The translations under genes and the position numbers were made by a program. The notes below the pieces were generated by a model, which was given only the letters and a program-made list of their open reading frames with translations, was not told where the DNA came from and did not search any database. A stretch of 64,000 bases of DNA from Pseudomonadota bacterium (lineage in GTDB: Bacteria; Myxococcota_A; Polyangia; GCA-2747355): the NCBI GenBank assembly GCA_016711215.1, contig JADJTL010000001.1, positions 1,144,067 through 1,208,066 of the forward strand, given 5' to 3'. Positions 3,642 through 19,507 of this stretch are shown piece by piece. Each line of letters begins with the position of its first letter. Position 1 is the stretch's first letter.

Positions 3642-6600
3642 TCAGCCGAGCTTGGGGTTGGGGTTGCGCACGCGCGCGAGGTAGGTCGTGCGCGGCTTGA
3701 GATTCATGTCGCCCAGCACCGCGTAGTTGCGGTCGCGCTGCTTGAGCTGCGCGACGCGGCTCCGCGGGTCATTGAGATCGCCGAAGACGATCGCCTCGGT
3801 CGGGCAGACCTGCTGACAGGCCGGCACCACCGTGCCGTCGGCGATGGTATCGCTGCCCGCGGCCTTGGCCGCGAGGCGGGCGCCGTTGATGCGTTGCACG
3901 CAGTAGGTGCACTTCTCCATCACCCCGCGAAAGCGCACGGTGACGTCGGGGTTGCGCTGCATCGCCAGCAGCGCGTTCTGCCGGTCGTGCTCGGCCTGGT
4001 AGTTGAAGAAGTTGAAGCGCCGCACCTTATATGGGCAGTTGTTGGCACAGTAGCGTGTGCCGATGCAGCGGTTGTAGGCCATGTCGTTCAGCCCCTCGGG
4101 GCTATGCGCGGTGGCGCCGACCGGGCAGACGCTTTCGCAGGGCGCCGTCTCGCAATGCTGGCAGGCCATCGGCTGCGTGACGGGCAGGGCGTCGTCGCTC
4201 TCGCCGCTGAAATAGCGATCGAGGCGAATCCAATGCATCTCGCGGCCGTTGAGCACGCGCTCCTTGCCGACGACGGGGATCGTGTTCTCTGACTGGCAGG
4301 CGATCGTGCAGGCGTTGCAGCCGATGCAGCTGCTGAGGTCGATCGTCATGCCCCATTGCCGACCCGTCGTGGGGTTGGGCGGCTCCCAGAGCAGGGTCTT
4401 GACCTCGGCGTCGGGCAGGAGCTGCGCGGCGCGGGCGAAGTCAGGGTCGCGCTGGTACTGCGCCAGCGTTGCCTCCTGCACGATCGGGCGGCGCTGGCCG
4501 GTCAGGGGCTCGATCAGCGTGCCGTGGTCCTGCGTGCAGGCGAGCGCGTAGTGCCCGCGCAGGTGGCGCAGCCTGACGCCTTGGGCGAAGCGCGAGGCGT
4601 CGACGGTGCGCAGCGCGTTGGCGTTGAAGCCGCGGCCGTCGGCCACCGGGCCGCTATGCTGGCGACCATAGCCCAGCGCCAAGGCGACGCAGCTCTCTGC
4701 GACGCCCGGCGTGATCCAGACGGCGGCCTGCAGGCGGCGACCATCATGTTCGAGCTCGATCAGCTCCTCGGACTTGAGCCCGAGCCGGCGCGCCGTGGCT
4801 GCCCCGATCAACGCCGCGTTATCCCACGTCAGCTTGGTCACCGGATCGGGCAGCTCTTGCAGCCAGGCGTTGCCGGCGAAGCGGCCGTCGTAGAGCGTCG
4901 CGTCGAGCTGAAAGACCAACTCCAGGCGTTGGTCGGTGGGGGCCGGTCTATCGAGGGCGTCCTGCGGGCGCGCCGTCCGGGCGTCCCGATCGGCCGAGCC
5001 GCTCGAGCCCTCGAGCGTTGGTCGCGCTGCGGGCCTGCCGGCGAGCTGGGTCGCAAGCGCCTGCCACTCGTAGGTGGGGCTGAGCGCGGCGAGCTCAGCC
5101 GGGCGCTGCCCGTCATGGACCAGCGCGCGCCAGCGACGCTCGTGGCTGGCCTCATCGGCCCCGGCCGGCAGCAGGCCTGCATAGGCTGCGGTCGCCGGGC
5201 GGCGCAGCAGCGTGTAGCCATCGTGGAGCTTAGAGGCGATCAGGCGCGCAACGAGCTCGATCGGCGAGAGCGAGGCGAAGAGGGGCGCGATCAGCGGCTG
5301 CTGCACGCTGATCGTGCCGTCGGCGGCGCGGAGATCGCCCCAGGCCTCGAGGAAGTGGCTTTGGGGCACGACCCAGCGCGCCAGCGCCGCGGTCTCGTTG
5401 GCCGTGGGGCAGAGGTAGATCGTCGACGGGACGCGGCGCAGCAAGGTGCCGAACTCGAGATCGGCCGGCGCGTCATAGACCGGGTTTCCGCCGACGATGA
5501 CCAGCGATGAGACGGTCTCGGCCCGCAGCGCCGCGGCGAGGGCCTCGATCCCCTCGCAGTCCGCTGCCAGGTCGGGGTAGTAGCTGACCGTCTGGCCGAC
5601 GCTGCCGAGCAGCGCGTTGGTCAGCTGGCCGAGCGCATGGACCAGCGGCGGCTGCCCTTCGCCAACGATGATCAACGCCCGCCCGCGATGGGCGAGGAGG
5701 TCCTCGGCCAGCGCGCCAATCCAGCGCTGATGCGCGGCGCTCGGCGCGCGCGCCCGCAGGCGCGCCAGGAGCTGCTCGGCGCCGGCGGGCGCCGGCAGGG
5801 AAGGCGCGAGCTTGGCGACCAGGTCGGCGAGAAAGCCACCCACCTGCGAGGCCGCCAGGCGCAGGCGATTGTCGGCGTTCATCCCCGTGACGGTGAAGGC
5901 TGGCTCGACCACGTAGAGCCTGTTCATCCCGTCGCGCGGGCTGGTGAGGCGCCGTCGTTGGGCAAAGGCGCGGGCCTGGCGGACGACGTCGCCCTCGAGG
6001 CCGAGCGGATCGGCGTCGAGGGCTAGCACGACATCGGCGCGATCGAGCGCATAGCAGGGCCGAGCCCCCTTCAGCCCGACGAGTGCTGCGCCGGCCAGGC
6101 TCTGCCGTGGTTGGGCCGCGTCGTGGACGTAGAGGCGTGCGTGCGGGTAGCGAGCGCGAAGCTCGCCCAGCAGCGCGTGGAGCGTCGGCGAACGGAGGTC
6201 CTGCAGCAGCAGCGCCAGGCCGCGCCCCTGCTGCCGCTCGAGGCGCGCCGCGAGCCCGGCCAGCGCGGCATCGCGCTCGCGCGTGGAGACCGAGCGGTCG
6301 CCGAGGCGCGTGCGCCGCAGGCGCTGCGGGTCGTAGAGATCGAGCACGCTCGCCTGCAGGAAGGTGTCGGTGGCGCCGCGACTCATCGGATGGTCGGGGT
6401 GGCCCTCGATCTTGGTCGGGCGTCCGTCCTGGCTCTCGACGAGCAGGCCGACCACCCCCCCCGTGAGCTGGGCGGCGGTGGCGTAGTAGCGCGGCTGTCC
6501 AGGGACCAGATCCTCGGGCCGCTGGTTGAAGGGCAGGATCAGCTCGCGTGGCTTGCGCACGCAGCCGCTCAGCGTGGCGCCGGCGAGGGTTAGCGAGGCG

Positions 6601-6797
6601 CCCATCACCCCGAGGAAGTCGCGGCGCCCGACGTGGTCGAGGTCGAGCTGCGCGGCATTGGGCGGAAACTCGTCGCGCTGGGCAGCCTGCGCTGGATCGA
6701 TCGGCGCGCCCTCGGCATTGAGGCTGCGCCAATGACGCGGGGCGGTGGCGTTTCCCTCGGCGGTGGCAGCGGGGGCGTGCACTCTAGGCGTAGTCAT
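3642..6797 (-). CDS. actB: Alternative complex III subunit ActB (molybdopterin-oxidoreductase-like domain fused to 4Fe-4S ferredoxin domain)
   Basis: ORF track 1125 aa. Twin-arginine signal [17 protein letters not shown]; C-terminal Cys clusters ([38 protein letters not shown]). The tracked start at 7019 overlaps actA, so the start is placed at the internal Met (MTTPRV) abutting the actA stop. Confidence 0.85.
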
Positions 6798-7522
6798 CGG
6801 TGGCACCCCGAGCAGTGCAAGGGCGGCTCGAGCTGGCGCTTGCGCCGCGGATCGCGCGCGGCGACGTAGCCCGCGGCCGCCGGGTCGTAGCCGAGGTCGG
6901 TGACTTTGTCCAACGGACCCACCCGGCCCGCTGGGTTGCGGTGGCAGTCCAAGCACCAGCTCATGCTCAGCGGCTGGACCTGGCGCACGACCGTCATCTG
7001 GTCGACGCGGCCGTGACACTGCACGCAGCCGACGCCCGCGGCCACGTGGACGCGGTGATCGAAGAAGGCGTAGTCGGGCAGCAGGTGAACGCGCACCCAG
7101 GGGAGCGGCAGCCCGCTGGCATGGGCGATGCGCAGGGGCGCGAGCTTGACGGTCTCGGGCAAGATCAGCTTCTCGTGACAGCCCATGCAGGTCTGCGTCG
7201 GGGGCACGGCGGCGACCGGCGCCCGCTCGACGGTGCTGTGGCAGTAGCGGCAGTCGAAGCCGAGCTCGCCCGCGTGGAGCTTATGGCTGAAGGGGACGGG
7301 CTGGATCGGCTCGTAGCCGACGTCGGTAAACGAGGGAGAAAACCAGTACCAGATCGCGCCGACGACCGTCGCCAAGACCACGGGCAAGGCCAGGCCGAGG
7401 TAGAGCGGAAGACGATTGGTCCAGCGCGGGAAGAGCGGGGTCACGGCTTGTCGACGCTCCCTCGGTAGCAGTAGTCGCCGGCAGTCGCCCCAGCGGCTTC
7501 GATCCCGGGCGACCTCGAGCAC
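6794..7522 (-). CDS. actA: Alternative complex III subunit ActA, pentaheme cytochrome c
   Basis: ORF track 242 aa; five CxxCH motifs (CRYCH, CMGCH, CVQCH, CLDCH, CSGCH); N-terminal membrane anchor. Confidence 0.85.
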   Translation of the reverse strand: MLEVARDRSRWGDCRRLLLPRERRQAVTPLFPRWTNRLPLYLGLALPVVLATVVGAIWYWFSPSFTDVGYEPIQPVPFSHKLHAGELGFDCRYCHSTVERAPVAAVPPTQTCMGCHEKLILPETVKLAPLRIAHASGLPLPWVRVHLLPDYAFFDHRVHVAAGVGCVQCHGRVDQMTVVRQVQPLSMSWCLDCHRNPAGRVGPLDKVTDLGYDPAAAGYVAARDPRRKRQLEPPLHCSGCHR

Positions 7523-7885: not shown

Positions 7886-9007
7886 ATGATTATTGTGATG
7901 CGCCCCGAATGCGGGCCTGAATCCCCCGAAGTGGCCGAGGTCGTGCGCCTGGCGCGGACCTTCCCCGACGTGCAACCAGAGGTACGGCAAATCCAGGGCG
8001 CCACGCGCTCGCTGACGGAGGTCTACCTGATCGGATCGACTGGCCAACTGCCGCTCGATCGCTTCGCCGACAGCCTGGGCGTCGAGCGCGCGATCCGCGT
8101 GCGAGAGAAATATCGTGCGATTGGCCGCCACGAGGGGCAGGTCGAGGCGCTGGGCTTCGAGTACAACGGGCTCCGCTTCGGCGATGATAGCTTCCATGTC
8201 TTCGCCGGGCTCTGCGCGGTCGACACCCGTGAGAACGTCGAGCAGATGTTCCGCGCGCTGAAGCAGCTCGGGCTGCAGACGACGCGTGCCGGGGCCTACA
8301 AGCCGCGCACCAGCCCCTACGATTTCCAGGGGCATGGCCGCGCCTGTCTGCCCTACGTCTTCGAGCTGGCCGGCAAGTACGACATCAAGTGCGTGGCGAT
8401 GGAGATCACCCACGAGACGCAGCTCGACGAGATCCGCGAGGCCCTCGAGCGCGCCGGGCAGCCGACGGGTGTGCTGATTCAAATCGGCACGCGCAACGCG
8501 CAGAACTTCGAGCTGCTGAAGCACGTTGGGCAGCAGCAGGACTTTCCCGTGCTCTTCAAGCGCGGGATGGGCATCACGCTGGCCGAGTCGCTGAATGCCT
8601 GTGAATACATCGCCAGCGGCGGCAACCATCGAATCATCTTCTGCCTGCGCGGGATGAAGACGAACCTCGGCGATCCGCACCGAAACCTCGTCGACTTCGC
8701 GCATGTGCCGGTGGTCAAGCGCCTGACGCGCTTGCCGGTCTGTATCGACCCGTCGCATTCGGTCGGCCAGCGCCTGGTGGCGTTGGACGGCTTGCTCGAC
8801 ATGCATCACGCGGCAGCGCAGGGCATCGTCGCCGGCGCGAACATGGTGCTGGTCGACTTCCATCCGACGCCAAAAGAGGCGCTCTGCGACGGCCCGCAGG
8901 CCCTCTTGCTCAAGGAGCTCGAGCACTTCGTCGCCGACACCCAGCTCGTGCGCAAGGCCTACCTCGACCGGATAGCCCTCGGTCGGCGCCTGCTCCAAGA
9001 GCGCTAG
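7886..9007 (+). CDS. aroF: 3-deoxy-7-phosphoheptulonate (DAHP) synthase, KDO8P-synthase-like type I-beta with N-terminal ferredoxin-like regulatory domain
   Basis: ORF track 373 aa; motifs GTRNAQNFELLK, KRGMG, CIDPSHS; length matches Thermotoga/Bacillus-type DAHPS. Confidence 0.85.
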   Translation: MIIVMRPECGPESPEVAEVVRLARTFPDVQPEVRQIQGATRSLTEVYLIGSTGQLPLDRFADSLGVERAIRVREKYRAIGRHEGQVEALGFEYNGLRFGDDSFHVFAGLCAVDTRENVEQMFRALKQLGLQTTRAGAYKPRTSPYDFQGHGRACLPYVFELAGKYDIKCVAMEITHETQLDEIREALERAGQPTGVLIQIGTRNAQNFELLKHVGQQQDFPVLFKRGMGITLAESLNACEYIASGGNHRIIFCLRGMKTNLGDPHRNLVDFAHVPVVKRLTRLPVCIDPSHSVGQRLVALDGLLDMHHAAAQGIVAGANMVLVDFHPTPKEALCDGPQALLLKELEHFVADTQLVRKAYLDRIALGRRLLQER

Positions 9008-9025
9008 ACACTCGTTCGCCGCTGC

Positions 9026-9039
9026 GGCCCCGCGGGGCC
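9026..9039 (+). terminator. GC-rich palindrome (GGCCCCGCGGGGCC) immediately after the DAHP synthase stop; possible terminator hairpin
   Basis: Perfect 14-bp palindrome seen in sequence; no U-tract, which is common in high-GC genomes. Confidence 0.3.
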
Positions 9040-9046
9040 CGCCCTG

Positions 9047-9095
9047 CGCACGCCACGCACGCCACGCACGCCACGCACGCCACGCACGCCACCTT
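9047..9095. repeat. Tandem repeat, 9-bp unit CGCCACGCA, about 4.5 copies
   Basis: Direct reading: cgcacgccacgcacgccacgcacgccacgcacgccacgcacgccacc; intergenic. Confidence 0.85.
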
Positions 9096-9337
9096 TGGCG
9101 GGCCCGGCGTGCGCCCCTGTGCCCGAGCCGCCAGCTCAGCGCGAAGGCCAATTGCGAGCCACGGGTATCTGGGGTTGAATGGCCCCGCTTTCGAACGAGC
9201 GATCTCGGGAGCTTGCGGTCTCATGTCCCCAGGTAGCGCTTCGCGATTACTGCAACCATCCGGAAGGACAATGGTCATGCCATGGCACGAGAGCTGCTTC
9301 TAATGCTTCTCGGCAGCGTTCCTAGGAGGGGCAAGCG

Positions 9338-10540
9338 ATGACGAATCAAGACGCTCGACCAGATGCTCGACCAGATGCTCGACCAGATGCTCCACGCGAC
9401 GGCCGAGGCGTTGGCGTGCAGGCGCTGAGAGCCAGGCGGTGGGTCGCAATGCTCGGCCTTTGCGCACTGCAACTTGGCTGCGCGGGCAGCGTCGACTCGG
9501 GTGCTGCGGGGGGCGATGCCCTGGGCACCGGTGGGTCGATCTACGACGTCACCAACACCGCCGGGGCCGTCGGGTCGACCGCCAGCGAGAGCGCTATTTC
9601 GAGCGGCACGAAGCTCTTCGTCATCGCCGACGGGGCACGGGTCAACGTGACGGTGGCCGGCAGCAGCACCCCGGTGATCTGGGGCAAGCTGTCGACGGGC
9701 GACGTGCTCGGCTTCGGCTATCTCGACAAGGCCTATCGCTATGAGCACGGCGGCACGGCCACGGAGCTGCTGCCCAGCGGTTCTGCGGGCGGGATGGTGA
9801 CGAGCTCGATGGTCGCGCCGGGCGCGGAGATCGGGCTGCCCAGCCTCAACCTCACGGGGACGACCCAACCCTACGTGCTGATCGTGCGGGGACCGGAGGC
9901 CAGCGGTGCCTACGGTTATATACTTTCGCCCTGCGGCGACGCTGCCTGCTCCAACGGCCCGACGGATGCCACCGTGCGGACCGCGGTGGCCAATCAACCG
10001 GTCAACGTCGGGGGTGATTACACGCTCGAGTTCCGCCCGGTCGAGCTGAACGGCGTTGCGAAGACGCTCTTCTCGCTGCGGAGGACGACGGCCGTCGCCA
10101 CCAGCGCGAGCACCAGCGCGAGCACCAGCGCGACCACCGCGGCGACCAGCAGCGTGGCCCCGGCCGCTCCCACCCCGCCACCCCCGCCGCCCACGGCCCC
10201 CACGGCCCCCACCGCGCCGGCAAAGGCCGCCGACGACGGCTGGTCGATGACCGATTGGCTGCTGCTCGGTGGCGCCGCGGTGGGCGGGTACGTCCTGTGG
10301 ATGAAGAAATGCGACTGGTTCGATATCGCCTGCAACGGCGCACAGACGAACGCTGCCGGCGGCGGTCCCAACTGGGGTGGTAATGATCCTAGCCTTCTGA
10401 ACGGGACGGTGGGAGGCAACACAGCCGCCTTTCCTTATGGCTATCAGTCCGCGACGGGAGCTGGCTGCTACGTCGATGCGAATGGACAGGTGCGGCTCAG
10501 ATCGACGCACCTTCTCGGCGACACTTGGAGCTGCTACTAG
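9338..10540 (+). CDS. Hypothetical membrane-anchored lipoprotein with N-terminal DARP repeats, Thr/Ser/Pro-rich linker, TM helix and Cys-containing C-terminal domain
   Basis: ORF track 400 aa; AGGAGG 7 nt upstream of the ATG; lipobox LQLGC; TSASTSASTSATT...PTPPPPPPTAPTAPTAP linker; hydrophobic WLLLGGAAVGGYVLWM; no recognisable catalytic motif. Confidence 0.6.
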   Translation: MTNQDARPDARPDARPDAPRDGRGVGVQALRARRWVAMLGLCALQLGCAGSVDSGAAGGDALGTGGSIYDVTNTAGAVGSTASESAISSGTKLFVIADGARVNVTVAGSSTPVIWGKLSTGDVLGFGYLDKAYRYEHGGTATELLPSGSAGGMVTSSMVAPGAEIGLPSLNLTGTTQPYVLIVRGPEASGAYGYILSPCGDAACSNGPTDATVRTAVANQPVNVGGDYTLEFRPVELNGVAKTLFSLRRTTAVATSASTSASTSATTAATSSVAPAAPTPPPPPPTAPTAPTAPAKAADDGWSMTDWLLLGGAAVGGYVLWMKKCDWFDIACNGAQTNAAGGGPNWGGNDPSLLNGTVGGNTAAFPYGYQSATGAGCYVDANGQVRLRSTHLLGDTWSCY

Positions 10541-10654
10541 CGAGGCATGCTCACGGTTGTTGCCCCCCACAGGCCACGCCCTCGTCCACCCCAATCTGCT
10601 CAGCCGGCCCAGCTCAGTATCCGCGGCGCCCAGCGTCCACCGCAGGGCGCCGAA

Positions 10655-11869
10655 TCAGCCGCAGCCGCCACTCTTCTTGCCCTTCGGTCGCAGCTTCACC
10701 GTGGGCGTGTAGGGTAGCTTCGGCGCATGCTCGGGGTCGAGCGCGGCCGCCGGATGGCGATCGCCGAGGGCGGCCGCGAAGCGCCAATGCAGCCGGTCGT
10801 CGCCGGCGACGGCGGTCGTGATCGGCTCGACGCCGGTCGATCCCGCTCCATAGGTCGCGATCCAGCGGTTGAGGCCGCCGGCGAGGACGTAGACATTGGG
10901 CACACCGAGCAGCGCCAGGTGGCGCCAGGCGGCCGTGGCGGACGTCTCGTCATTCGAGATCAGGATCACGACGCTGGGATCCGGTAGGCTGATCAGCCTC
11001 CGCCGCTGGCTCGGCAACGCCGCGATCGAGACGCGCTCGGCGTTGGCGAGGTGAAAGCGGTTCCAGTCGCTCTCGGGCCGCAAGTCGAGCGTCACGAGCT
11101 TCAGATCGCGGTCGCCCTGCAGGGCCAGCAGCTCGGCCGGCACGATGAAGACCTCGCGGCGCGCGAGCTGGGGCTGGTACTTGGCGCCCAGTCGCTCCCA
11201 CTTGGCGTCGAGTGAGGGCTGGCCGAGCGCTGCGACGGCGCCCACGCCGCCGAGGAGCAGCGCCGTGCCGGCCATCGCCTTGGGCCAGTGGACGGGCCGC
11301 TCGTGACCGAGCCGTCGCGCCACGAATTTCAGGCCGCCGAAGAAGGCGAGGGCCAGCAGAGCGACCAGCCCCACCGCGGTGGCCGTCGAAACGCCGAAGA
11401 GGTCGGTGAGTTGGAGTGGACCGAAGTGGCCGGCGTAGTAGAACGCGCGGAAGTAATCGGCCGTCTCGCCGAAGGCGAACATGCCGAGCAAGCTGCCGAG
11501 CACGAAGAAGAACCCGTCGATCTTACCGGTAGCCAACGAGGCCAGCGACGTTCCCGGGCAGTAGCCGCCGATCGCGAAGCCGACGCCAAAGATCAGCCCG
11601 CCGAGGGCTACCGAGGGGACGTAGGTCGGATTGACCCAGAGCTGGTCGAGGTCGAGCCAGCGCAGGCCCGAGCTGAGATAGAGCAAGAGCATCGCCGTGA
11701 CGATCGCCGTGAACATCGCCTGCACGACGCGCAGCTCGCGGAAGTAGAACTGCGCCGCGAGTCGCCGCGCGTCGCCGAAGCCGGTGGACTCGAGCACGAA
11801 GCCGAAGGCCAGCCCGATCAGCACCTCGACCAGATGGGCCGACCAGCCGCCCAACGCGAAGGGGCCCAT
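10655..11869 (-). CDS. YeeE/YedE-family sulfur-compound transporter half (TsuA-like) fused to a C-terminal rhodanese-like domain
   Basis: ORF track 404 aa; conserved GGYCPG motif in a polytopic membrane domain; C-terminal ~130 aa with rhodanese-like strand/loop (VVILISNDETSATAAW) where the usual catalytic Cys position is N/D. Confidence 0.7.
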   Translation of the reverse strand: MGPFALGGWSAHLVEVLIGLAFGFVLESTGFGDARRLAAQFYFRELRVVQAMFTAIVTAMLLLYLSSGLRWLDLDQLWVNPTYVPSVALGGLIFGVGFAIGGYCPGTSLASLATGKIDGFFFVLGSLLGMFAFGETADYFRAFYYAGHFGPLQLTDLFGVSTATAVGLVALLALAFFGGLKFVARRLGHERPVHWPKAMAGTALLLGGVGAVAALGQPSLDAKWERLGAKYQPQLARREVFIVPAELLALQGDRDLKLVTLDLRPESDWNRFHLANAERVSIAALPSQRRRLISLPDPSVVILISNDETSATAAWRHLALLGVPNVYVLAGGLNRWIATYGAGSTGVEPITTAVAGDDRLHWRFAAALGDRHPAAALDPEHAPKLPYTPTVKLRPKGKKSGGCG

Positions 11870-11872
11870 GGC

Positions 11873-12415
11873 TTAGCCTTCCTCGCGGCCGGGGGTCCAT
11901 AGTCGCCGCACGAAGAAGGCGCAGCCGTAGGCCCCGGCAAAGCAGGCGAAGAGGAAGATCCACGAACCCACGGCGAGCGTCGCTCCGCCGCTGAGGCCCT
12001 GCCCCGAGGTGCAGCCACGCGCCAGCCGGGCGGCATAGCCCACCAGCGCGCCCCCGACGAGGGCGGCGATCCAGCGCACGCGCGCTGTGATCCGCGGACC
12101 GTGGAAGGTCTCGAGGCGCACGCGCCGGCGGAGCAGGCCAGAGGTCAGGCCGCCGAGCAGCACGCCACCGATCGACCAGACGATCCAGTGATCGAGAGGC
12201 CCGCCGGCGCCGCGCATGAACTCGGCCACGGCCGGGGTGCGGGCCACATGGCGCGGGGCGACGCGCTGCTCGGCCGCGGCCACGAGGCGCGCCGTGCCGC
12301 CCGAGCTGCCCAGCCCGTGGCCCGTGACGAAGAACGCCGCAAAGAGCACCAGTCCGAGCATCAGCCCGCCGAAATAGGGATTCCAATAGCGTGGGTTTTC
12401 GCCCGGCATCGTCAC
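11873..12415 (-). CDS. YeeE/YedE-family sulfur-compound transporter half (first repeat)
   Basis: ORF track 180 aa; membrane protein with ARGCTSGQG motif; separated from the partner half by one codon. Confidence 0.7.
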   Translation of the reverse strand: MTMPGENPRYWNPYFGGLMLGLVLFAAFFVTGHGLGSSGGTARLVAAAEQRVAPRHVARTPAVAEFMRGAGGPLDHWIVWSIGGVLLGGLTSGLLRRRVRLETFHGPRITARVRWIAALVGGALVGYAARLARGCTSGQGLSGGATLAVGSWIFLFACFAGAYGCAFFVRRLWTPGREEG

Positions 12416-15400
12416 TCCTTCGGCTTCGGTCGCAATGGGCCGCGTTGGGCGGCGGTGGCCAGCGGTCGCGCCGGCCGATAGGCTAGCGCGCCGTCGCTGC
12501 CGCGCTCGAGCGCGCCGTCGAGGGCGACCGTCTCGGCGCTGGCAGCGGCGGCCAACGTCGGCCTCAGGCCACCGGGCAGATAGGGGGCGACGACGAAGGA
12601 TCGCCGCGCCGCCTCTGAGCTCGGGTGGCAGCGCGCGCAGGCCCGGCTCGCTGCCGCCCCGAGCCCCACGCCGTGGTAAATCGGGTAGGGGCGCAGCTCA
12701 CCCTGGATGACGGCGCCGGCCGCGCCGAGGGCCGCGATCCCTTTGGCGACCAGCGCCACCTTGGCGGCGGTGTCGAGTCGTAGCTCCCTGTCGGTGACGC
12801 GGCCATCGTGGTTACTGTCGAGCGCGGCGATGATCTCGGCGCGATAGCCGTCACGGTCGCGGAAGACCCGCTGCACGAGCGCGGGTGGCACCGGCCGCTT
12901 ACCGACGATCCAGCGATAACTGGCCACGAGGTTCGCGGGCGTCAGCCGCGTGATCCCGTCGCCACCGCGCGCGCGCACGAGCGCTGGTTCGTAGCCCGCG
13001 AGGTAGAGCGTCGCCGGATCGACGACCTCGCCAGCGGCGGGGTCAGCGGCGGCGCTAGCGATGCCGCGGTAGAGCAGGCGAGGGGAGCCGTCCGGGCGCA
13101 CGACGGTGGCGTCGACGAGCGATCGCGCGGGGAGCGCGAGGCGTGGCACGTGGCAGGCCTCGCAGGCGACCTTGGCGAAGTGCTGCTGCTGGGCCGGCAG
13201 CCAGGGGTGCAAACCCTCCAGGCTGTGGCAGCTCTGACAGCGGCGTCGCTCGCCGGGCTTGGCTGCCCGCGCCTTGGCGATCGCGCCGCCGAGCTGCGCG
13301 GGCCGTCGGCCGCTGTAGTGGCAGGCACCGCAGCTCACCAGCCGCTGGGCGTGGATATCCCAGGGCTGCCCCTGCTGGTCTTTTTGCATCAGGTTCAACG
13401 CCGAGCGGCGTATCGCCTGCCAGGAGAACACCTGGCCGGTCGTTTCCGTCACCCACTGCGTGCCGTCGAGGACGACGTTCAGCGGCGCGCTGCCGTTATC
13501 GACCAGGCCATGGCAGGCGCCGCAGCTCGCTTCGCCCGTCCGCCCGAGCTTTAGCTCTACCGCGCCCTCGGCGTCGAAGGCCGCGGGACGCCAGCGCCAG
13601 CGTTGCGCGGCCGCCTCCTCGATCAGCGCGGCGGGCAGCGTGGCGCCGATCGACCACTCCGGCTGATCGCTGGCCAGGGCGCGCCCTCGCGCCGCGTGAT
13701 CGGCGGCCTCGAGATGACAGAGGAAGCAGTTGGTTTCTTCGCCCGTGGCGGGGGGCAGGCGGGGCCCCCAGCGCAAGAGCTCGCTGCGTGGCTGCGGCAA
13801 GGCCTCCAGCGCGAGCCCTGCGTGCAGGCGGTGGGTCGCCACGAAGCTCGCGTCCGCCAGCTCATGGCAGCCGCCGCAGGTCTGGGCGGTAGAGAGCGGC
13901 GCGGCGCTCTCAAATACCGATTGTCCGACGCGGTCCTTGAGCGTGATTCGCGGATGCTCCACGGCCTCGCGCGCGAGCGGGTCACGCGGATAGCCCAGGG
14001 CCCGCCAATCGAGGCGTCCGCGCTCGCCGTGACAGTCGCGGCAGGTCAGGGCCGCTTCCTTCCGTTGCACCATATGCGAGAGCGGCCAGAACATCTCCGT
14101 CGCCGCGAAGCCGTAGCGTCCGCTGTAGGGCAGCCCCGTGGCTTTCGCCCCCTCACGCGCCGCGAGGTCCCAGTCGAACTTGGTCCAGTAGCCCTTCGGC
14201 CCGCTGGTATTGGGCAGCAGCAGGTGGCGATGGTCTTGGTCGTAGAGCTGCTTGCCCAGATGGCGCTTGAAGGGCCAGAGCTTGGCGCTGGGATCGTGGC
14301 GGTCGCCGAGCGGTGAGGTGATCGCGGTCACGCCGCCGGGGTCGATCTTGTCGCCCAGCAGGTAGCGCGTCGAGCGCCCGTTGTACCAGCGGTACTCGGG
14401 GAGGGCGCCCTTGGCCCAGGTGAAGCGGCCCTTGATCTTGAGATAAGCGTGTGGGTCCGTGCTCGGGAGATCCTTTCCGGCCTCGGACCAATCCCAGCTC
14501 AGCTTCGTGCCCTCGGTCACGGACATCGACGGGATGTGGCAGGCCTGGCAGGCGACCCGGGCGGTGTGTCGGTTGAGCTGGCTATCGTGATGAGGCTGCG
14601 CCGCGTGGCAGTCGCCGCAGCTGACCTGGTGGGCGCTCTCGACGCTGACCGACATCGCGCGTCCGCGCAGCCGATGGTTCTGGGTGCGGTGGCAGTCGAC
14701 GCACTGCAACTCCAAGCGACCCATATGCACATCGACCCCTTCGCTGGGAAAGAGCAGGCTGCGGTCCATGTCGCCGTGCTTGACCGCGTCGCCGCCGCCG
14801 CCCATGAAGTGGCAGGCACCGCAGTTGGCGCGTCGCGGCCGGCCCACCGAGCGCGCCACCGCCAGCAGATCGACGCTCGGATCGGGCAAGCCGGCGCCCT
14901 TTGCCTGCTTGCTGTAGGTGCCGCTCTGGTCGTGACAGACGAGGCAATCGACCAGGCTCGGGTTGTTGAAGTCGAAGTCCGGTCCGTTCCAGCCGAAGCC
15001 GGCATGGCAGCTCGTGCAGGCGCCCCAGTTGGAGCTGATGCCGATGCAGAAGTTGTTGATCGCGTTCTTCTTGCCGATGCGATGCAGGCCCCGATGCCCG
15101 GGAACCGAGACCGGGTCGCCCTGCCAGGTCCAGTGCACCGTGCTCATCAGCTCGCGCGCCGCCCTCGGGTGGCACTCGAGGCAGGCGCGCGTCACCGCCG
15201 GCCCGTCCCGAAAGGGCGTGTCGAAAAACGTGCTGTGACTGACGGGCGGCGGCCGCAGCGGCAGTTGTGCGAGCCCAAGGCCAGCGGTTGGGTTGCGCTC
15301 GCAGCCGGCGGCGTAGCAGACGAAGCAGGCGGCGCCGACCACGAGCGCGCCCGCGCGAAAGGAACGCGGGCGGCCATCGCGTCGCGCGAGCTCGCCGCGC

Positions 15401-15441
15401 CGAGTACGGGTGCTCTTCACGATCAGCCCATGCGGGTCCAC
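12412..15441 (-). CDS. Large multiheme c-type cytochrome (about 15 CxxCH motifs), signal peptide or lipoprotein
   Basis: ORF track 1009 aa; CxxCH motifs counted by eye: CLECH, CTSCH, CLVCH, CGACH, CVDCH, CGDCH, CQACH, CRDCH, CGGCH, CFLCH, CGACH, CGACH, CQSCH, CEACH, CARCH; N-terminal hydrophobic ALVVGAACFVCYAAGC; 4-bp overlap with the downstream YedE-like gene. Confidence 0.8.
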   Translation of the reverse strand: MDPHGLIVKSTRTRRGELARRDGRPRSFRAGALVVGAACFVCYAAGCERNPTAGLGLAQLPLRPPPVSHSTFFDTPFRDGPAVTRACLECHPRAARELMSTVHWTWQGDPVSVPGHRGLHRIGKKNAINNFCIGISSNWGACTSCHAGFGWNGPDFDFNNPSLVDCLVCHDQSGTYSKQAKGAGLPDPSVDLLAVARSVGRPRRANCGACHFMGGGGDAVKHGDMDRSLLFPSEGVDVHMGRLELQCVDCHRTQNHRLRGRAMSVSVESAHQVSCGDCHAAQPHHDSQLNRHTARVACQACHIPSMSVTEGTKLSWDWSEAGKDLPSTDPHAYLKIKGRFTWAKGALPEYRWYNGRSTRYLLGDKIDPGGVTAITSPLGDRHDPSAKLWPFKRHLGKQLYDQDHRHLLLPNTSGPKGYWTKFDWDLAAREGAKATGLPYSGRYGFAATEMFWPLSHMVQRKEAALTCRDCHGERGRLDWRALGYPRDPLAREAVEHPRITLKDRVGQSVFESAAPLSTAQTCGGCHELADASFVATHRLHAGLALEALPQPRSELLRWGPRLPPATGEETNCFLCHLEAADHAARGRALASDQPEWSIGATLPAALIEEAAAQRWRWRPAAFDAEGAVELKLGRTGEASCGACHGLVDNGSAPLNVVLDGTQWVTETTGQVFSWQAIRRSALNLMQKDQQGQPWDIHAQRLVSCGACHYSGRRPAQLGGAIAKARAAKPGERRRCQSCHSLEGLHPWLPAQQQHFAKVACEACHVPRLALPARSLVDATVVRPDGSPRLLYRGIASAAADPAAGEVVDPATLYLAGYEPALVRARGGDGITRLTPANLVASYRWIVGKRPVPPALVQRVFRDRDGYRAEIIAALDSNHDGRVTDRELRLDTAAKVALVAKGIAALGAAGAVIQGELRPYPIYHGVGLGAAASRACARCHPSSEAARRSFVVAPYLPGGLRPTLAAAASAETVALDGALERGSDGALAYRPARPLATAAQRGPLRPKPKE

Positions 15442-15459
15442 GTTGGGCGCTGCCTACGA

Positions 15460-15678
15460 TCAGCCCTCGGTCTCGTTCGGTCGCTCGACGCGCACGGCCT
15501 TCGGTTTCCCGAGGCGCGAGACTCCGACGCGCACCCGCACCGGGTCGCCGACCTTGGGCTCGTAGGTGCAATTGAAGGCATCGAAGGGGATCTGGCGACC
15601 ATCCTCGAGCTCGACGGTGCCAAAGCCCTGTTCGCGGGCGAAGCTGAGCACCTTTCCGGGAAATAGCTCATCAGACAC
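15460..15678 (-). CDS. Cold-shock-domain-like small protein
   Basis: Likely GTG start preceded by GGAGGTG; GKVLSFAREQGFGTVELEDGRQIPFDAF resembles the CspA-type motif (GxVKWFNxxKGFGFI...DG..VFVHF); many A/T-ending codons. The tracked 101-aa ORF is probably N-terminally over-extended. Confidence 0.5.
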   Translation of the reverse strand: MSDELFPGKVLSFAREQGFGTVELEDGRQIPFDAFNCTYEPKVGDPVRVRVGVSRLGKPKAVRVERPNETEG

Positions 15679-15937
15679 GAAGCACCTCCGTCGGCTGAGG
15701 AGGAGGGGATCCGCACCCACGCCTCCCCAGCAAAGCACCTGAGGCAGTACGCCTCCGCATTCCATTCATACCTGCAAGGTCCGCGCGCCACAACTCCGCC
15801 GCGCGCCCTCTGCCGGGAGCCCGCCGCAGATCGTGCCCGACCCCAACGACGGGGCCGGCCAAGGCGCGGTGCCCTGTTCGTCACCGTCCAAGGGGGGGAA
15901 GAGGGCCTCAGGTAACTCGGGCGCGAGTGGCCGCAGC

Positions 15938-16693
<756 letters not shown>

Positions 16694-16697
<4 letters not shown>

Positions 16698-17671
16698 GCT
16701 GGCTGCTCCGCCGGCTCGTGCACGAGGCTGACGAAGATGTCCTGAAGCGAACTCTGGCTGGTATGGAGGTCTTTGAAGTCGATGTCGAGCGCGCGCAGTC
16801 GCTCCAGCAGCGAGGCGATGCCCGTCTCCTCTCGTTGCGCGTCGAAAGCATAGACCAGCGCGCGATTGGCATCGGCGAGCTCGAGCGCGAAGTCCGAGAG
16901 CTCGGCCGGGAGCTGGTCGAGCGGCGCTCGCAGGGTCAGCTTGAGTTGCTTCTTGCCGAGCTTGGCCATCAGCGTGTTCTTGTCCTCGACGAGGATCAGC
17001 TCGCCCTTGTGGATCACGCCGATGCGGTCAGCCATCGCTTCGGCCTCCTCGATATAGTGCGTCGTCAGGATGATCGTGACGCCCTGTTCTCGGAGGCGGC
17101 CCACCATCGTCCACATGTCGCGTCGTAGGTTGACGTCGACGCCGGCCGTCGGCTCATCGAGAAACAGGATTCGCGGCTCGTGGGCCAGGGCCTTGGCGAT
17201 CAAGACCCGTCGCTTCATGCCACCCGACAGCGTCATGATCTTGCTGTCTCTCTTTTCCCACAGCGAGAGCTCCCGCAGCACCCGCTCGAGGTAGGCGGGG
17301 TCCGGGGCCTTGCCGAAGAGGCCGCGGCTGAAGTTGACCGTGGCCCAGACGTTCTCGAACGCGTCGGTCGAGAGCTCTTGCGGCACCAGGCCAAGCTTGG
17401 AGCGCGCGGCCCGGAAGTCGCGGATGATGTCGTGGCCGTCCGCGTTGACCGTGCCGCTGCTAGGGTTGACGATGCCGCAGACGATGCTGATCAGCGTCGT
17501 CTTGCCAGCGCCGTTTGGGCCCAGCAGCGCAAAGATCTCCCCACGCCGAATCTCGAGGTCGAGCGCCTTCAGCGCGCGGAAGCCGGACGCGTAGGTCTTG
17601 CTCAGCTGACGAATGCAAACGATCGGATCCACGCGAGCTCCGGCGGCAAGGGCGCAGCGTAGGGGAGGCAT
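16694..17671 (-). CDS. ABC transporter ATP-binding protein (ABC-2/DrrA-like)
   Basis: Walker [10 protein letters not shown], signature LSGGMKRR, Walker B ILFLDEPT; tracked start at 17830 would overlap tRNA-Ser, so the internal Met (MPPLRC) is used. Confidence 0.85.
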
Positions 17672-17783
17672 AGCCCCGGACGCTGGCGAAGGCGAGCGCT
17701 CGCGCCGATCGCGCCGAGCGCGCCGAGCGCGCCGAGCGGCTGGTGCGTCAGGGCCAGAGCGCTGGGACCGGGTCAGGCAAATA

Positions 17784-17873
<90 letters not shown>

Positions 17874-17945: not shown

Positions 17946-18641
17946 TCAGCGGCGATCCTCGAGCAGGACGTGCATCGAGCGATGCAGCACCTCCTCCAGT
18001 CCATCGAGGTCGGTGCCGTAGCGGCCGCGGATCCAACCCTGCTGATCCACCAGCACCAGGCCCGCGCTATGGGCGATGTCGATCAACCCGCTGCCCTCTG
18101 GCACCGGCTGGCCCATGTGGGTCTGGAAGCCAGTGCCGACGAGCGAGCGGATGGCCTGCTCGGTGCCGGTGAGGAAGGTCCAGCGGCTCGCGTCGGCGCC
18201 GTAGCGCGCGGCGTAGGCCCGGAGGCGCTCGGGCCTGTCGTGCTCGGGATCGACCGAGATGCTGACCAGGCGCACGTCGACGGCATAGCGATCGTACTGC
18301 TGCTGCAGCCGATGAAGGGCTTGCATGAGCTTGGGGCAGACGGAGGGGCAGCGCGTGAAGAAGAAGCTGGCGACGTAAACGTGTCCACGCAGCGCGCTGC
18401 TGCCGAAGCGCCGACCTTGCTGATCCAGTAGCGTGAAGGCCGGGAGCTGAGCCAGGCGCGGCGGTGGCGGGGGCACGCGTCGCAGCAGCGGGCGCAGCGC
18501 CGGCAAGGTGAGCAGAGCGATGACGGCCGCCCAGAGCCAGGGGTTGCGGTACCACGGGGCGCGATGCGCGGGGTCGAGCGTAGGGGTCGACGGGTTCGCG
18601 GCTGAGGTCGGCGCCGTCGCCGCGGGCGCTGGGATCATGTC
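17946..18641 (-). CDS. SCO1/SenC-family copper chaperone (thioredoxin-like)
   Basis: Motif FFFTRCPSVCP (CxxxCP); N-terminal membrane anchor; start placed at the internal Met overlapping the upstream permease stop. Confidence 0.8.
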   Translation of the reverse strand, partial: DMIPAPAATAPTSAANPSTPTLDPAHRAPWYRNPWLWAAVIALLTLPALRPLLRRVPPPPPRLAQLPAFTLLDQQGRRFGSSALRGHVYVASFFFTRCPSVCPKLMQALHRLQQQYDRYAVDVRLVSISVDPEHDRPERLRAYAARYGADASRWTFLTGTEQAIRSLVGTGFQTHMGQPVPEGSGLIDIAHSAGLVLVDQQGWIRGRYGTDLDGLEEVLHRSMHVLLEDRR

Positions 18642-19507
18642 TGGGACCCCGCCGGGCGGCGCCCGGTGGCCCAGACGGCCCAGGCCAGCCCCGCGATGGT
18701 CATCCCGCCGAGCACGAGGCAGCTCGTGAGCAGGCCGATCGGCGAGCCGACGCCGCCGAGGGTCAGCCGCACCGCGGCGACGATATAGGTCAGCGGATTG
18801 AGGCGCATCACCACCCCGAGCCAACCGTCGGGCACGGGAAACATCGCGCCCGAGATCACCCAGAGTGGGAGGAGCACGACGCTCATCAGCGCGTGATAGC
18901 CCTGCGACGAGTTGAGCAGCCAGGCCATCGCGAAGTTGATCGCCGTCAGCCCGGCACTGCCGAGGACGAGGACCGCGGCCAGCGGCAGCCAGCGCACCTC
19001 TGCCCACGGATAACCGGCGAGCGGCGCCAGCAGCAGCAGCAGCGCGGCCTGGATCAGCGCCAGCGAGGTGACGCCGGCGGTCTTGCCCAGGACCGTCGCG
19101 GCGCGCGATCCGGGCGCGACGAGCACGCCCTGCAAGAAGCCGGACTGGCGATCTTCGATGACCGAGATGGTCGCGAAGATCGTCGTGAAGAGCAGCACCA
19201 TGACGATCGTGCCGGGGAAGAAATAGACCAAGTAGCTTGCGCCACCATGCTGGGGCGCGCGGAAGCTGCCCGAGAGGCCGCTGCCGAGCAGGAGCCAGAA
19301 GAGCAGCGGTTGCAGCACTACCCCGAGCCAGCGCGAGCGCTCGCGCAGCAGGTGCAGCATGTCACGCCGCCACAGCGTGCTGATCACGCTGAGCTCCTCC
19401 GCGAGGCAGCTCCGCGCCTCGGGGCTGGCGCCGCTCGGGGCGAGGGCGCTCGTCATGCCGGCCGCGGATGGTTGACTCGTTGCTTGCTCAGACATGTCTC
19501 CCCCCAA
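18635..19507 (-). CDS. ABC-2 type transporter permease
   Basis: ORF track 290 aa; six predicted hydrophobic helices; stop overlaps the SCO1 start. Confidence 0.7.
   Translation of the reverse strand: MGGDMSEQATSQPSAAGMTSALAPSGASPEARSCLAEELSVISTLWRRDMLHLLRERSRWLGVVLQPLLFWLLLGSGLSGSFRAPQHGGASYLVYFFPGTIVMVLLFTTIFATISVIEDRQSGFLQGVLVAPGSRAATVLGKTAGVTSLALIQAALLLLLAPLAGYPWAEVRWLPLAAVLVLGSAGLTAINFAMAWLLNSSQGYHALMSVVLLPLWVISGAMFPVPDGWLGVVMRLNPLTYIVAAVRLTLGGVGSPIGLLTSCLVLGGMTIAGLAWAVWATGRRPAGSQT

Follow-up and report, generated by a model that had tools for sequence, protein, structure and literature searches.

The window analysed here is a stretch of 64,000 nucleotides from contig JADJTL010000001.1 (assembly GCA_016711215.1), and its minus strand carries at positions 10655–15441 an operon of three genes that encode a 15-heme c-type cytochrome and the two halves of a YeeE/YedE-type channel, the second of which ends in a rhodanese-fold domain and a flexible, cysteine-containing tail. 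By comparison of profiles, alignments and predicted folds, we found that the cytochrome is composed of a catalytic octaheme tetrathionate reductase (OTR) and a heptaheme paralog of it that lacks the catalytic heme, and that these domains, the channel pair and the cysteine tail form a cassette conserved in many phyla. We tentatively propose that the operon encodes one membrane-associated periplasmic machine in which sulfur redox chemistry on or beside the tail (arm) cysteine is coupled to import; this is the explanation we favor, at a confidence that stays somewhat short of even. We infer the substrate, the direction of electron flow, the covalent carriage on the arm and the import step from the evidence given below.

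All coordinates are those of the window, and all features of the operon lie on its minus strand. Gene 1 (12412–15441) encodes the cytochrome of 1009 amino acids; gene 2 (11873–12415) encodes a protein of 180 amino acids that is half A of the channel (PmpA-like, from PF04143 and the charge distribution); and gene 3 (10655–11869), an open reading frame (ORF) with PF04143 and PF00581 matches, encodes a protein of 404 amino acids that joins half B, the rhodanese domain and the tail. Genes 1 and 2 overlap by 4 nt (12412–12415), and 3 nt (11870–11872) separate genes 2 and 3. These junctions, which confirm the coordinates of an earlier reading made without database searches (the sequence-only reading below), indicate co-translation of the three genes (translational coupling). 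The window proteins are identical to GenBank entries MBK8480424.1 (gene 1) and MBK8480422.1 of a ‘Proteobacteria bacterium’ metagenome-assembled genome with a 1.33-Mb contig.

The gene 1 protein contains exactly 15 CxxCH motifs, each of them kept in 20 diverse full-length homologs, and no CxxCK motif; the sequence-only reading had counted about 15 but could not place the cytochrome in a known family. It does have a place: the whole protein scores 573.3 bits with TIGR04315 (cut-off 375), and residues 69–491 align end to end with chain residues 4–435 of Shewanella oneidensis OTR (PDB 1SP3; E 3.2e-146). By profile and alignment, the domain at residues 68–491 (13969–15240) is a bona fide OTR with 8 hemes, its CxxCH motifs standing in OTR spacing at residues 87, 142, 166, 207, 247, 275, 298 and 467. 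OTR, crystallised in 2004, shares its fold class with the sulfite reductase MccA, and a 2026 study states that no physiological function had ever been established for it (PMC12949373). Models of MccA, NrfA and HAO are absent from the NCBIfam output for gene 1 at E up to 0.1, and the only nitrite-reductase-related match is the small subunit NrfH, with 21 bits against a cut-off of 134. Apart from the missing CxxCK of NrfA, the only long-spacer match to the CX15CH motif of MccA is incidental and overlaps the heme-2 motif. The profile searches that had been suggested for this protein thus place it in OTR, a sulfur-associated family.

The catalytic heme of OTR has a normal CxxCH attachment and is ligated by a Lys from a neighbouring helix (PMC13562315). 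In the window domain, the alignment predicts Lys124 (codon 15070–15072) as this proximal ligand, corresponding to Lys56 of 1SP3 by our own count of the chain, and CTSCH at residues 142–146 (15004–15018) as the attachment motif of catalytic heme 2. A non-heme cysteine, Cys132 (codon 15046–15048; Cys64 of 1SP3), follows eight residues past the Lys ligand. All of the 80 OTR domains compared (80/80) retain Lys124, Cys132, Asn129, Asn130, Asn138 and the heme-2 motif C142xxCH146. It should be noted that GenBank annotates a selenocysteine (Sec)-containing member of the OTR family, WP_331457571.1 (PMC13188914); the identity of its Sec residue could point to a catalytic cysteine, possibly Cys132.

Gene 1 begins with a probable signal peptide read from the sequence (15301–15441), with a weak lipobox YAAGC (Cys47). 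When 19 fused homologs were aligned with the window protein, 9 showed a lipobox-like LxxC at the same place, and lipoboxes are clear in about half of the fused homologs; the cytochrome is probably secreted and lipid-anchored, as had been suspected.

The remainder of gene 1, residues 492–1009 (12415–13968), is a second, degenerate OTR. In hhalign, the N-terminal and C-terminal halves of the protein match with a probability of 98% (E 2.3e-13), and the heme motifs pair one to one (87 with 522, 166 with 572, 207 with 640, 247 with 704, 275 with 735, 298 with 760) except for heme 2: a gap of about 30 residues in the C-terminal half covers exactly the segment from the Lys ligand Lys124 through the heme-2 motif C142xxCH. 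An AlphaFold2 (AF2) model of this half has a predicted local distance difference test (pLDDT) score of 72.8, and the only significant PDB match of the model in Foldseek is 1SP3 (probability 0.99, with a TM-score of only about 0.25). The kinship is visible only by such profile–profile and fold comparison: TIGR04315 reports no second full match in residues 492–1009, and, searched by sequence, the C-terminal half matched generic multiheme models in Pfam and nothing in the PDB. On these comparisons the domain, which we call pseudo-OTR, is a diverged OTR paralog minus the catalytic heme and Lys, a fold homolog and not a member of the enzyme family. The single 15-heme cytochrome described earlier does have its 15 hemes, but is really a catalytic octaheme OTR joined to a catalytically dead heptaheme paralog. 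Since the heptaheme domain has exactly seven invariant non-motif His for its seven hemes, all of them would be bis-His ligated, and the domain would act as an electron-transfer wire with no second active site. It also contains an EF-hand-like loop DxNxDGxxxxxE (residues 875–886, 12784–12819) conserved in the homolog alignment; the EF-hand Pfam matches are weak (E 0.2–0.34), and the conserved loop suggests a Ca2+ site in this periplasmic multiheme domain.

In two-piece YeeE/YedE proteins of the PmpA/PmpB type, described by the Dahl laboratory, each piece has about four transmembrane (TM) helices and a single Cys, at the YeeE Cys293 and Cys91 positions, and proteins of this type are linked to sulfur uptake (PMC11582611). 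Genes 2 and 3 are of this kind, being adjacent and having one invariant channel Cys each. Half A matches profile positions 175–309 of PF04143 (Sulf_transp), the C-terminal half of YeeE, with 73.6 bits against a cut-off of 27; half B matches positions 10–149, the N-terminal half, with 53.3 bits against 27, and also DUF6691. The PmpB-like membrane part of gene 3 (residues 1–215, 11225–11869) includes two extra helices, TM5 and TM6, recognized from the AF2 model, hydropathy and charge, and half B is atypical for PmpB in its extension of about 270 amino acids.

Cys135 of half A (codon 12011–12013, motif GCTSGQ) maps to the YeeE Cys293 position on the periplasm-facing side (PMC11582611, PMC7449682), and Cys104 of half B (codon 11558–11560, motif GGYCPG) aligns with the Cys91 position. 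Among the 47–54 channel orthologs that we extracted from related loci, exactly three Cys of the membrane module are conserved: Cys135 of A (54/54), Cys104 of B (46/47) and Cys403 of B (46/47). The two YeeE/YedE halves with these motifs, as read from the sequence, are confirmed. Sec in the GUxSG motif of YeeE/YedE-family selenoproteins occupies the position of A-Cys135 (PMC13188914), which marks this residue as redox-active.

The description of the pair as a TsuA-like thiosulfate importer could not be upheld. The TsuA/YeeE equivalog models NF041049 and NF052577 gave 13.6–29.4 bits against cut-offs of 400–645, and in place of the single TsuA/YeeE chain of about 330–350 amino acids with nine TM helices and three Cys, the window has two genes and two channel Cys. 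With scores so far under the equivalog thresholds, the term thiosulfate importer is an extrapolation. A gene for a cytoplasmic TsuB/YeeD (TusA-like) partner was found neither in the window operon nor among the conserved genes across the 80+ loci examined.

Residues 244–338 of gene 3 (10856–11140) form a rhodanese-fold domain, predicted to be periplasmic; it matches PF00581 with 45.9 bits (cut-off 22.2), is modelled by AF2 with pLDDT above 90, and is matched in Foldseek by many single-domain rhodaneses. The rhodanese-like domain that had been read at the C-terminus therefore holds as a fold, but its catalytic Cys is absent and replaced by Ser305; among 47 orthologs this position is S in 35, G in 9, A in 2 and C in 1, with an acidic ‘SNDE’ loop. 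The argument that rhodaneses handle sulfane sulfur is thus inapplicable as stated, and the candidate sulfur-carrying residue is instead Cys403 (codon 10661–10663), singled out by its conservation in the tail.

Past the rhodanese domain, the orthologs share a structured extension of about 50 residues and then a tail of the form ...[FY]xPK[VI]K[LV]..K....GGCG-COOH. In the window protein this region comprises residues 345–404 (10658–10837) and ends in ...KGKKSGGCG-COOH, with the last 6 residues below pLDDT 50 in the AF2 model, as expected of a flexible arm. The GGCG motif is found in 46/47 orthologs, and of the 53 matches to the C-terminal pattern among the six-frame ORFs of all loci (9250), 50 belong to this rhodanese-tail module. 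SoxY carries sulfur intermediates on a C-terminal swinging arm ‘VTIGGC’ (PMC11237559, PMC5336275), and the end ...SGGCG-COOH is likewise a C-terminal Gly-Gly-Cys arm. The SoxY domain (PF13501) has no match in gene 3 at E up to 0.1, so the likeness of the two arms is treated as an analogy; the window operon also has no soxZ.

In YeeE, the N-terminus lies outside the membrane and the C-terminus inside; the N-terminal half (H1–H6) starts and finishes outside, and H7 reverses the topology (PMC7449682). Half B consists of the N-half elements and, in the AF2 model, two further helices at residues 162–186 and 195–215. A K/R-rich loop leads into its sixth segment, which is hydrophobic in 47/47 orthologs (19-residue Kyte–Doolittle mean 1.9, minimum 1.37). 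Averaged over the 47 orthologs, K+R counts in B are 0.3, 0.2 and 1.1 in the segments predicted outside against 3.4 and 3.9 in the loops predicted inside, and half A is predicted to have both termini inside, opposite to B, as the inverted pseudo-symmetry of YeeE requires.

Stand-alone forms of the module point the same way. A HMMER search with residues 216–404 gave 568 representatives at E up to 1e-3, which have two architectures: fused proteins of about 400–445 amino acids and stand-alone proteins of about 197–217 amino acids. The latter begin with a K/R n-region and about 18 hydrophobic residues (a signal anchor) followed by the ‘GQP’ motif of the fused proteins; their loop is likewise Cys-less, and they too end in GGCG. 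At L086:2-890 and L087:1-791, B is naturally split in the TM5/TM6 loop: the upstream gene stops just after TM5 of the YeeE half, and the second gene is a signal-anchored Cys-less rhodanese of about 210 amino acids with the GGCG tail. From the YeeE topology combined with the count of six TM helices, the positive-inside charge and these signal-anchored versions, the Cys-less rhodanese domain and the Cys arm of B are predicted to face the periplasm, the side of the cytochrome.

The synteny scan, with one genome per GTDB species, yielded 80 loci. Among the 49 loci in which the heptaheme gene is followed by 1.5 kb or more of sequence, 48 have the YeeE pair, the sole exception being L012, and six further loci show the pair near contig ends. 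The cassette occurs in at least 10 phyla, including Chloroflexota, Planctomycetota, Myxococcota, Gammaproteobacteria, Gemmatimonadota, KSB1 and Bacteroidota. In a reverse look-up, 3/3 B homologs picked solely on the length of their contigs lay in the same cassette, and the flanking genes were unrelated. The neighbourhood is thus conserved, and with the cytochrome in the sulfur-associated OTR family, the proposal of the sequence-only reading that an uncharacterised periplasmic sulfur-compound redox module is genetically coupled to a YeeE/YedE transporter is supported at its core: it withstands those of that reading's refuting conditions that could be examined in silico.

In the common form of the cassette, OTR has its own gene, which is followed in order by a heptaheme domain fused to a C-terminal cytochrome b561-type domain (PF01292), YeeE-A, and YeeE-B with rhodanese and tail. 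The cytochrome b part scores 138 bits with the thiosulfate reductase subunit PhsC (cut-off 204), compared with 52 and 36 for the b subunits of hydrogenase and formate dehydrogenase, and has at least 6 conserved His. An ArsR/SmtB-type regulator gene lies immediately upstream in the same orientation in about 37 loci; its assignment to the TsoR or BigR subfamily was discarded because both are sub-threshold and the generic ArsR/SmtB model alone passes.

The window represents a variant with OTR and heptaheme fused and with no cytochrome b (no tblastn match in the window). More than 115 metagenomic protein clusters share this fused architecture of about 980–1000 amino acids, and the compact three-gene unit recurs at the fused loci L001, L081 and L082. 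The lipid anchor may replace the lost membrane domain, as about half of the fused proteins have lipoboxes; no alternative redox partner is conserved in the fused-type loci, whose flanking genes are unrelated. In a neighbor-joining tree (calculated without support values), the fused forms nest among the OTRs of split cassettes, and true orphans form a separate clade. Among OTR-only loci, the YeeE pair is directly downstream in two (Opitutaceae, Bacteroidales) and absent in five orphans, and only two positions (342 and 375) discriminate cassette-linked from orphan OTRs.

Several loci deviate from these forms. The segment L037:9311-9580 encodes only the last ~50 residues of B (...GGGCG) directly after a short OTR gene. 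We rejected it as a stand-alone arm gene: it has no start codon, unrelated nrdR, ftsZ and ftsA come next, and its OTR nests in the cassette clade; the segment looks like what remained when a cassette was deleted. In some Anaerolineae, a second OTR copy lies just upstream of the full cassette (L046:4464-6810, L044:3002-5218), followed in L046 by its own cytochrome b gene, with no heptaheme module. At L082:11501-13520 (GCA_041320475.1, a 4.7-Mb genome), the fused cytochrome and YeeE-A are intact and B is called as several small ORFs, due either to pseudogenisation or to frameshift errors of the assembly. The contig of L005 (DATKXY010000198.1), which is binned as ‘archaeon’, carries a complete cassette with heptaheme and cytochrome b as separate genes; this reflects either mis-binning or transfer into an archaeon.

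In the model that we propose, electrons would pass through the seven bis-His hemes of pseudo-OTR to the eight OTR hemes and end at the Lys-ligated heme 2. In the common form, a PhsC-like diheme cytochrome b fused to the heptaheme wire would link it to the quinone pool; the fused form of the window, having no cytochrome b and being probably lipid-anchored, must exchange electrons with periplasmic carriers. The OTR enzyme would work with a heterodimeric PmpA/PmpB-type YeeE/YedE channel, and the two extra membrane crossings of B would display the non-catalytic rhodanese fold and its flexible, Lys-rich GGCG tail in the periplasm. Cys403 would covalently hold an S–S-bonded species, either a thiosulfonate (from tetrathionate or thiosulfate) or a persulfide, the OTR heme would reduce this adduct or form it, and sulfur would then be relayed from Cys403 to Cys135 of A, to Cys104 of B and into the cell.

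A sulfur substrate is suggested by the PhsC-like cytochrome b, by an Acidobacteriota otr gene induced 36-fold by tetrathionate (PMC8528874), by the sulfur link of PmpAB, by an otr gene that adjoins soxY–soxZ in lucinid symbionts (PMC11237559), and by Sec in YeeE. The action of a heme enzyme on a Cys arm has a precedent in SoxAX, which conjugates thiosulfate to the swinging-arm Cys of SoxY, and tetrathionate is used experimentally to load the same Cys (PMC5336275). Given this loading, it is plausible on chemical grounds that the arm captures tetrathionate spontaneously and that thiosulfate is then released in a two-electron step. A second precedent is DsrC, whose C-terminal Cys arm serves a sulfite reductase; it would fit the 2026 proposal of sulfite reduction by OTR.

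A narrower claim, which we regard as speculative and on the whole unlikely, is that the true substrate of the cassette OTR is a sulfur adduct (S-thiosulfonate or persulfide) on the GGCG arm Cys and not a free ion. If so, the cassette would be a heme-c-based, membrane-tethered counterpart of SoxAX–SoxY or DsrAB–DsrC, in which S–S bonds are cut or built on a protein arm with quinol-derived electrons and sulfur is fed into a two-cysteine YeeE-type channel. An arm-bound substrate would also explain the feeble tetrathionate activity of isolated OTRs.

A number of observations weigh against our reading. Tetrathionate is a poorer substrate of purified OTRs than nitrite and hydroxylamine, and deletion of otr in Shewanella gave no tetrathionate phenotype (PMC12949373). 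Orphan OTRs with neither arm nor YeeE exist (L068, L077, L079), and the OTR sequence is nearly the same in the cassette-linked and orphan groups, so the arm cannot be obligatory for the chemistry of the fold. Cytoplasmic sulfur acceptors (TusA, TsuB, DsrE) are not conserved in the cassette among the genes of the 80+ loci, and the window variant does without cytochrome b. The tail is not a SoxY homolog, its likeness being that of a short motif, and the periplasmic placement of rhodanese and tail rests on prediction.

Some of these observations favor a model in which the substrate of OTR is a free sulfur oxyanion of the periplasm, tetrathionate being reduced to thiosulfate or sulfite to sulfide, and the product diffuses to the YeeE-type channel, the rhodanese-like domain and tail Cys serving only to dock, gate or sense and carrying no substrate: orphan OTRs work without an arm, and OTR sequences are nearly alike with and without the cassette. 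In-vitro tetrathionate reduction is also the name-giving activity of the family, sulfite reduction was proposed in 2026 for Shewanella ANA-3 (PMC12949373), and YeeE moves free thiosulfate without covalent chemistry (PMC7449682). This model leaves unexplained why a flexible Lys-rich GGCG tail is kept in 46/47 orthologs despite the lost catalytic Cys of the rhodanese, and why the module is retained even as a separate anchored protein; we hold it to be doubtful, though a serious competitor.

The reading of an arm-centered machine also contains a variant running in the oxidative direction, in which thiosulfate or sulfide would be oxidised and conjugated to the arm Cys in a SoxAX-like manner, electrons would be delivered to the pool of cytochrome c in the window form and to quinone in the form with cytochrome b, and sulfane or oxidised sulfur would be imported for cytoplasmic use. 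The window organism is respiratory to judge from its genes (alternative-complex-III-like genes and SCO1/SenC nearby), and the fused form has no quinol-oxidising subunit; SoxAX and TsdA are precedents (PMC5336275), and import of SoxY-derived sulfane sulfur through the YeeE-like SoxT has been proposed (PMC11582611). On the other hand, PhsC, to which the cytochrome b is closest, works reductively, and the thiosulfate-oxidase activity reported for OTR is very low (PMC12949373). We assign this variant a minor share of the confidence placed in the arm-centered machine as a whole, a share that is not to be added to the likelihoods of the other explanations.

Members that contain Sec are known in both the YeeE/YedE and OTR families (PMC13188914), which speaks for a machine that handles selenium (or tellurium): the cytochrome would reduce selenite or a similar oxyanion, and the reduced selenium would be taken up by the Cys-armed, YedE-like channel. 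The best NCBIfam match of half A, a weak one, is in fact the selenium-metabolism YedE/FdhT model (E 9e-8), and the rhodanese domain weakly matches a ‘rhodanese-related (seleno)protein’ model, but these scores are far under the curated cut-offs (31.6 against 350 and 20 against 115), and the TsuA models score about equally. Moreover, selD, selA and yedF are not conserved in the cassette across the 80+ loci, and the nearest match of its cytochrome b is a subunit of thiosulfate reductase, which makes this function improbable. Least credible is a nitrogen-oxide enzyme, with the OTR domain acting as a nitrite/hydroxylamine reductase and the sulfur-type membrane genes unrelated or accessory: purified OTRs work best in vitro on nitrite and hydroxylamine (PMC12949373, PMC11237559) and the Lys-ligated heme resembles that of NrfA (PMC13562315), but the 98% linkage to a sulfur-family channel across phyla and the PhsC-like cytochrome b are hard to reconcile with it, and no nitrogen-cycle genes are conserved near the cassette in the 80+ loci.

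Each part of the cassette is from a known family, namely OTR, two-piece YeeE/YedE, the rhodanese fold and, in the common form, cytochrome b561, and public annotation names the proteins by family only. In the literature searched, we found no published description of the cassette, nor of the OTR paralog devoid of the catalytic heme, the periplasmic Cys-less rhodanese or the C-terminal GGCG arm. The cassette ties OTR to a sulfur-type channel and a Cys arm in many phyla and so provides concrete hypotheses on OTR function. If the proposed machine is real, it would be the third carrier-arm system after SoxY and DsrC and the first with the carrier built into a transporter. Its carriers are abundant, mostly heterotrophic environmental lineages (Anaerolineae, Planctomycetota, Myxococcota, Gemmatimonadota, Lysobacterales); since metagenomic studies label these genes just ‘tetrathionate reductase’ and ‘thiosulfate transporter’, inferences on the sulfur cycle may need revision.

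The surroundings of the operon were also inspected. The window has a G+C content of about 70%, and in this background a scan of 10300–16100 returned 0 promoter-like sites and 1 terminator-like site, on the wrong strand, numbers below those of shuffled sequences; an Rfam scan of 9000–17000 gave 0 matches. A small minus-strand ORF at 15460–15765 ends 18 nt upstream of the cytochrome start and could share the operon transcript; it was rejected as a cassette member, since it belongs to no Pfam family and related loci have no equivalent ORF. Farther upstream, an ABC-2-type transporter permease at 15938–16697 (minus strand) is in two overlapping frames (16041–16697 and 15938–16315), of which only the C-terminal piece matches PF01061, the frameshift being either genuine or introduced in assembly; its ABC ATPase partner is encoded at 16694–17830. 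An SCO1/SenC-family copper chaperone (PF02630) at 17946–18740 (minus strand), about 2.5 kb upstream of the operon, is consistent with aerobic respiration.

On the other side, alternative-complex-III-like genes at 3642–7522 (minus strand), which point to a respiratory organism, are near the operon and not conserved with the cassette; an ActA-like multiheme cytochrome (6794–7522) overlaps a large molybdopterin-like/4Fe-4S ActB-like protein (3642–7019) there. A perfect 9-bp tandem repeat of 5.1 copies (CGCACGCCA) is intergenic at 9047–9092, and downstream of it a convergent plus-strand ORF of 400 amino acids with no Pfam family (9338–10540) starts with a 12-bp repeat of 3.7 copies encoding DARP repeats and has further low-complexity runs, TSAS and PTAP.

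Compared with known systems, the OTR domain of the window shares with Shewanella oneidensis OTR (1SP3) the eight CxxCH motifs, the Lys ligand (Lys124 for Lys56) and the non-heme cysteine (Cys132 for Cys64). The Shewanella enzyme is described as soluble and single-domain, whereas that of the window is fused to a dead heptaheme domain, probably lipid-anchored and coupled to a YeeE-type channel. As in PmpA/PmpB and TsuA/YeeE, the channel consists of N- and C-halves of YeeE, here in adjacent genes, with Cys at the Cys91 and Cys293 positions and opposite predicted orientations; in contrast to these systems, half B has two extra TM helices, a Cys-less rhodanese predicted to be periplasmic and the GGCG tail, the Cys at YeeE Cys22 is absent, and the operon has no gene for a cytoplasmic partner (TsuB, YeeD or TusA).

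The common form resembles PhsABC and MccA with its quinol dehydrogenase in that it connects a putative periplasmic reductase of sulfur compounds with a quinol-oxidising subunit in the membrane. It differs from PhsABC in that the catalytic subunit is a multiheme cytochrome and not a molybdoenzyme, the PhsC score stays under 204 and the window variant lacks cytochrome b, and from MccA in having no CX15CH motif. With SoxYZ–SoxAX, the cassette would share a periplasmic Cys at the C-terminus of a Gly-rich flexible arm and a genetic tie to a c-type heme sulfur enzyme. There is no SoxY fold or SoxZ, however, the arm sits on a transporter-tethered rhodanese fold, and the heme enzyme is OTR and not the Cys-ligated diheme SoxAX; the likeness is an analogy, not homology. 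Finally, the polysulfide-sulfur transferase Sud of Wolinella succinogenes (PDB 1QXN), which is among the Foldseek matches, is likewise a periplasmic rhodanese fold tied to a respiratory sulfur reductase. Sud is soluble and carries sulfur on the canonical active-site Cys; in contrast, the window domain has no active-site Cys, and its sole Cys predicted to be periplasmic is the one in the C-terminal tail.

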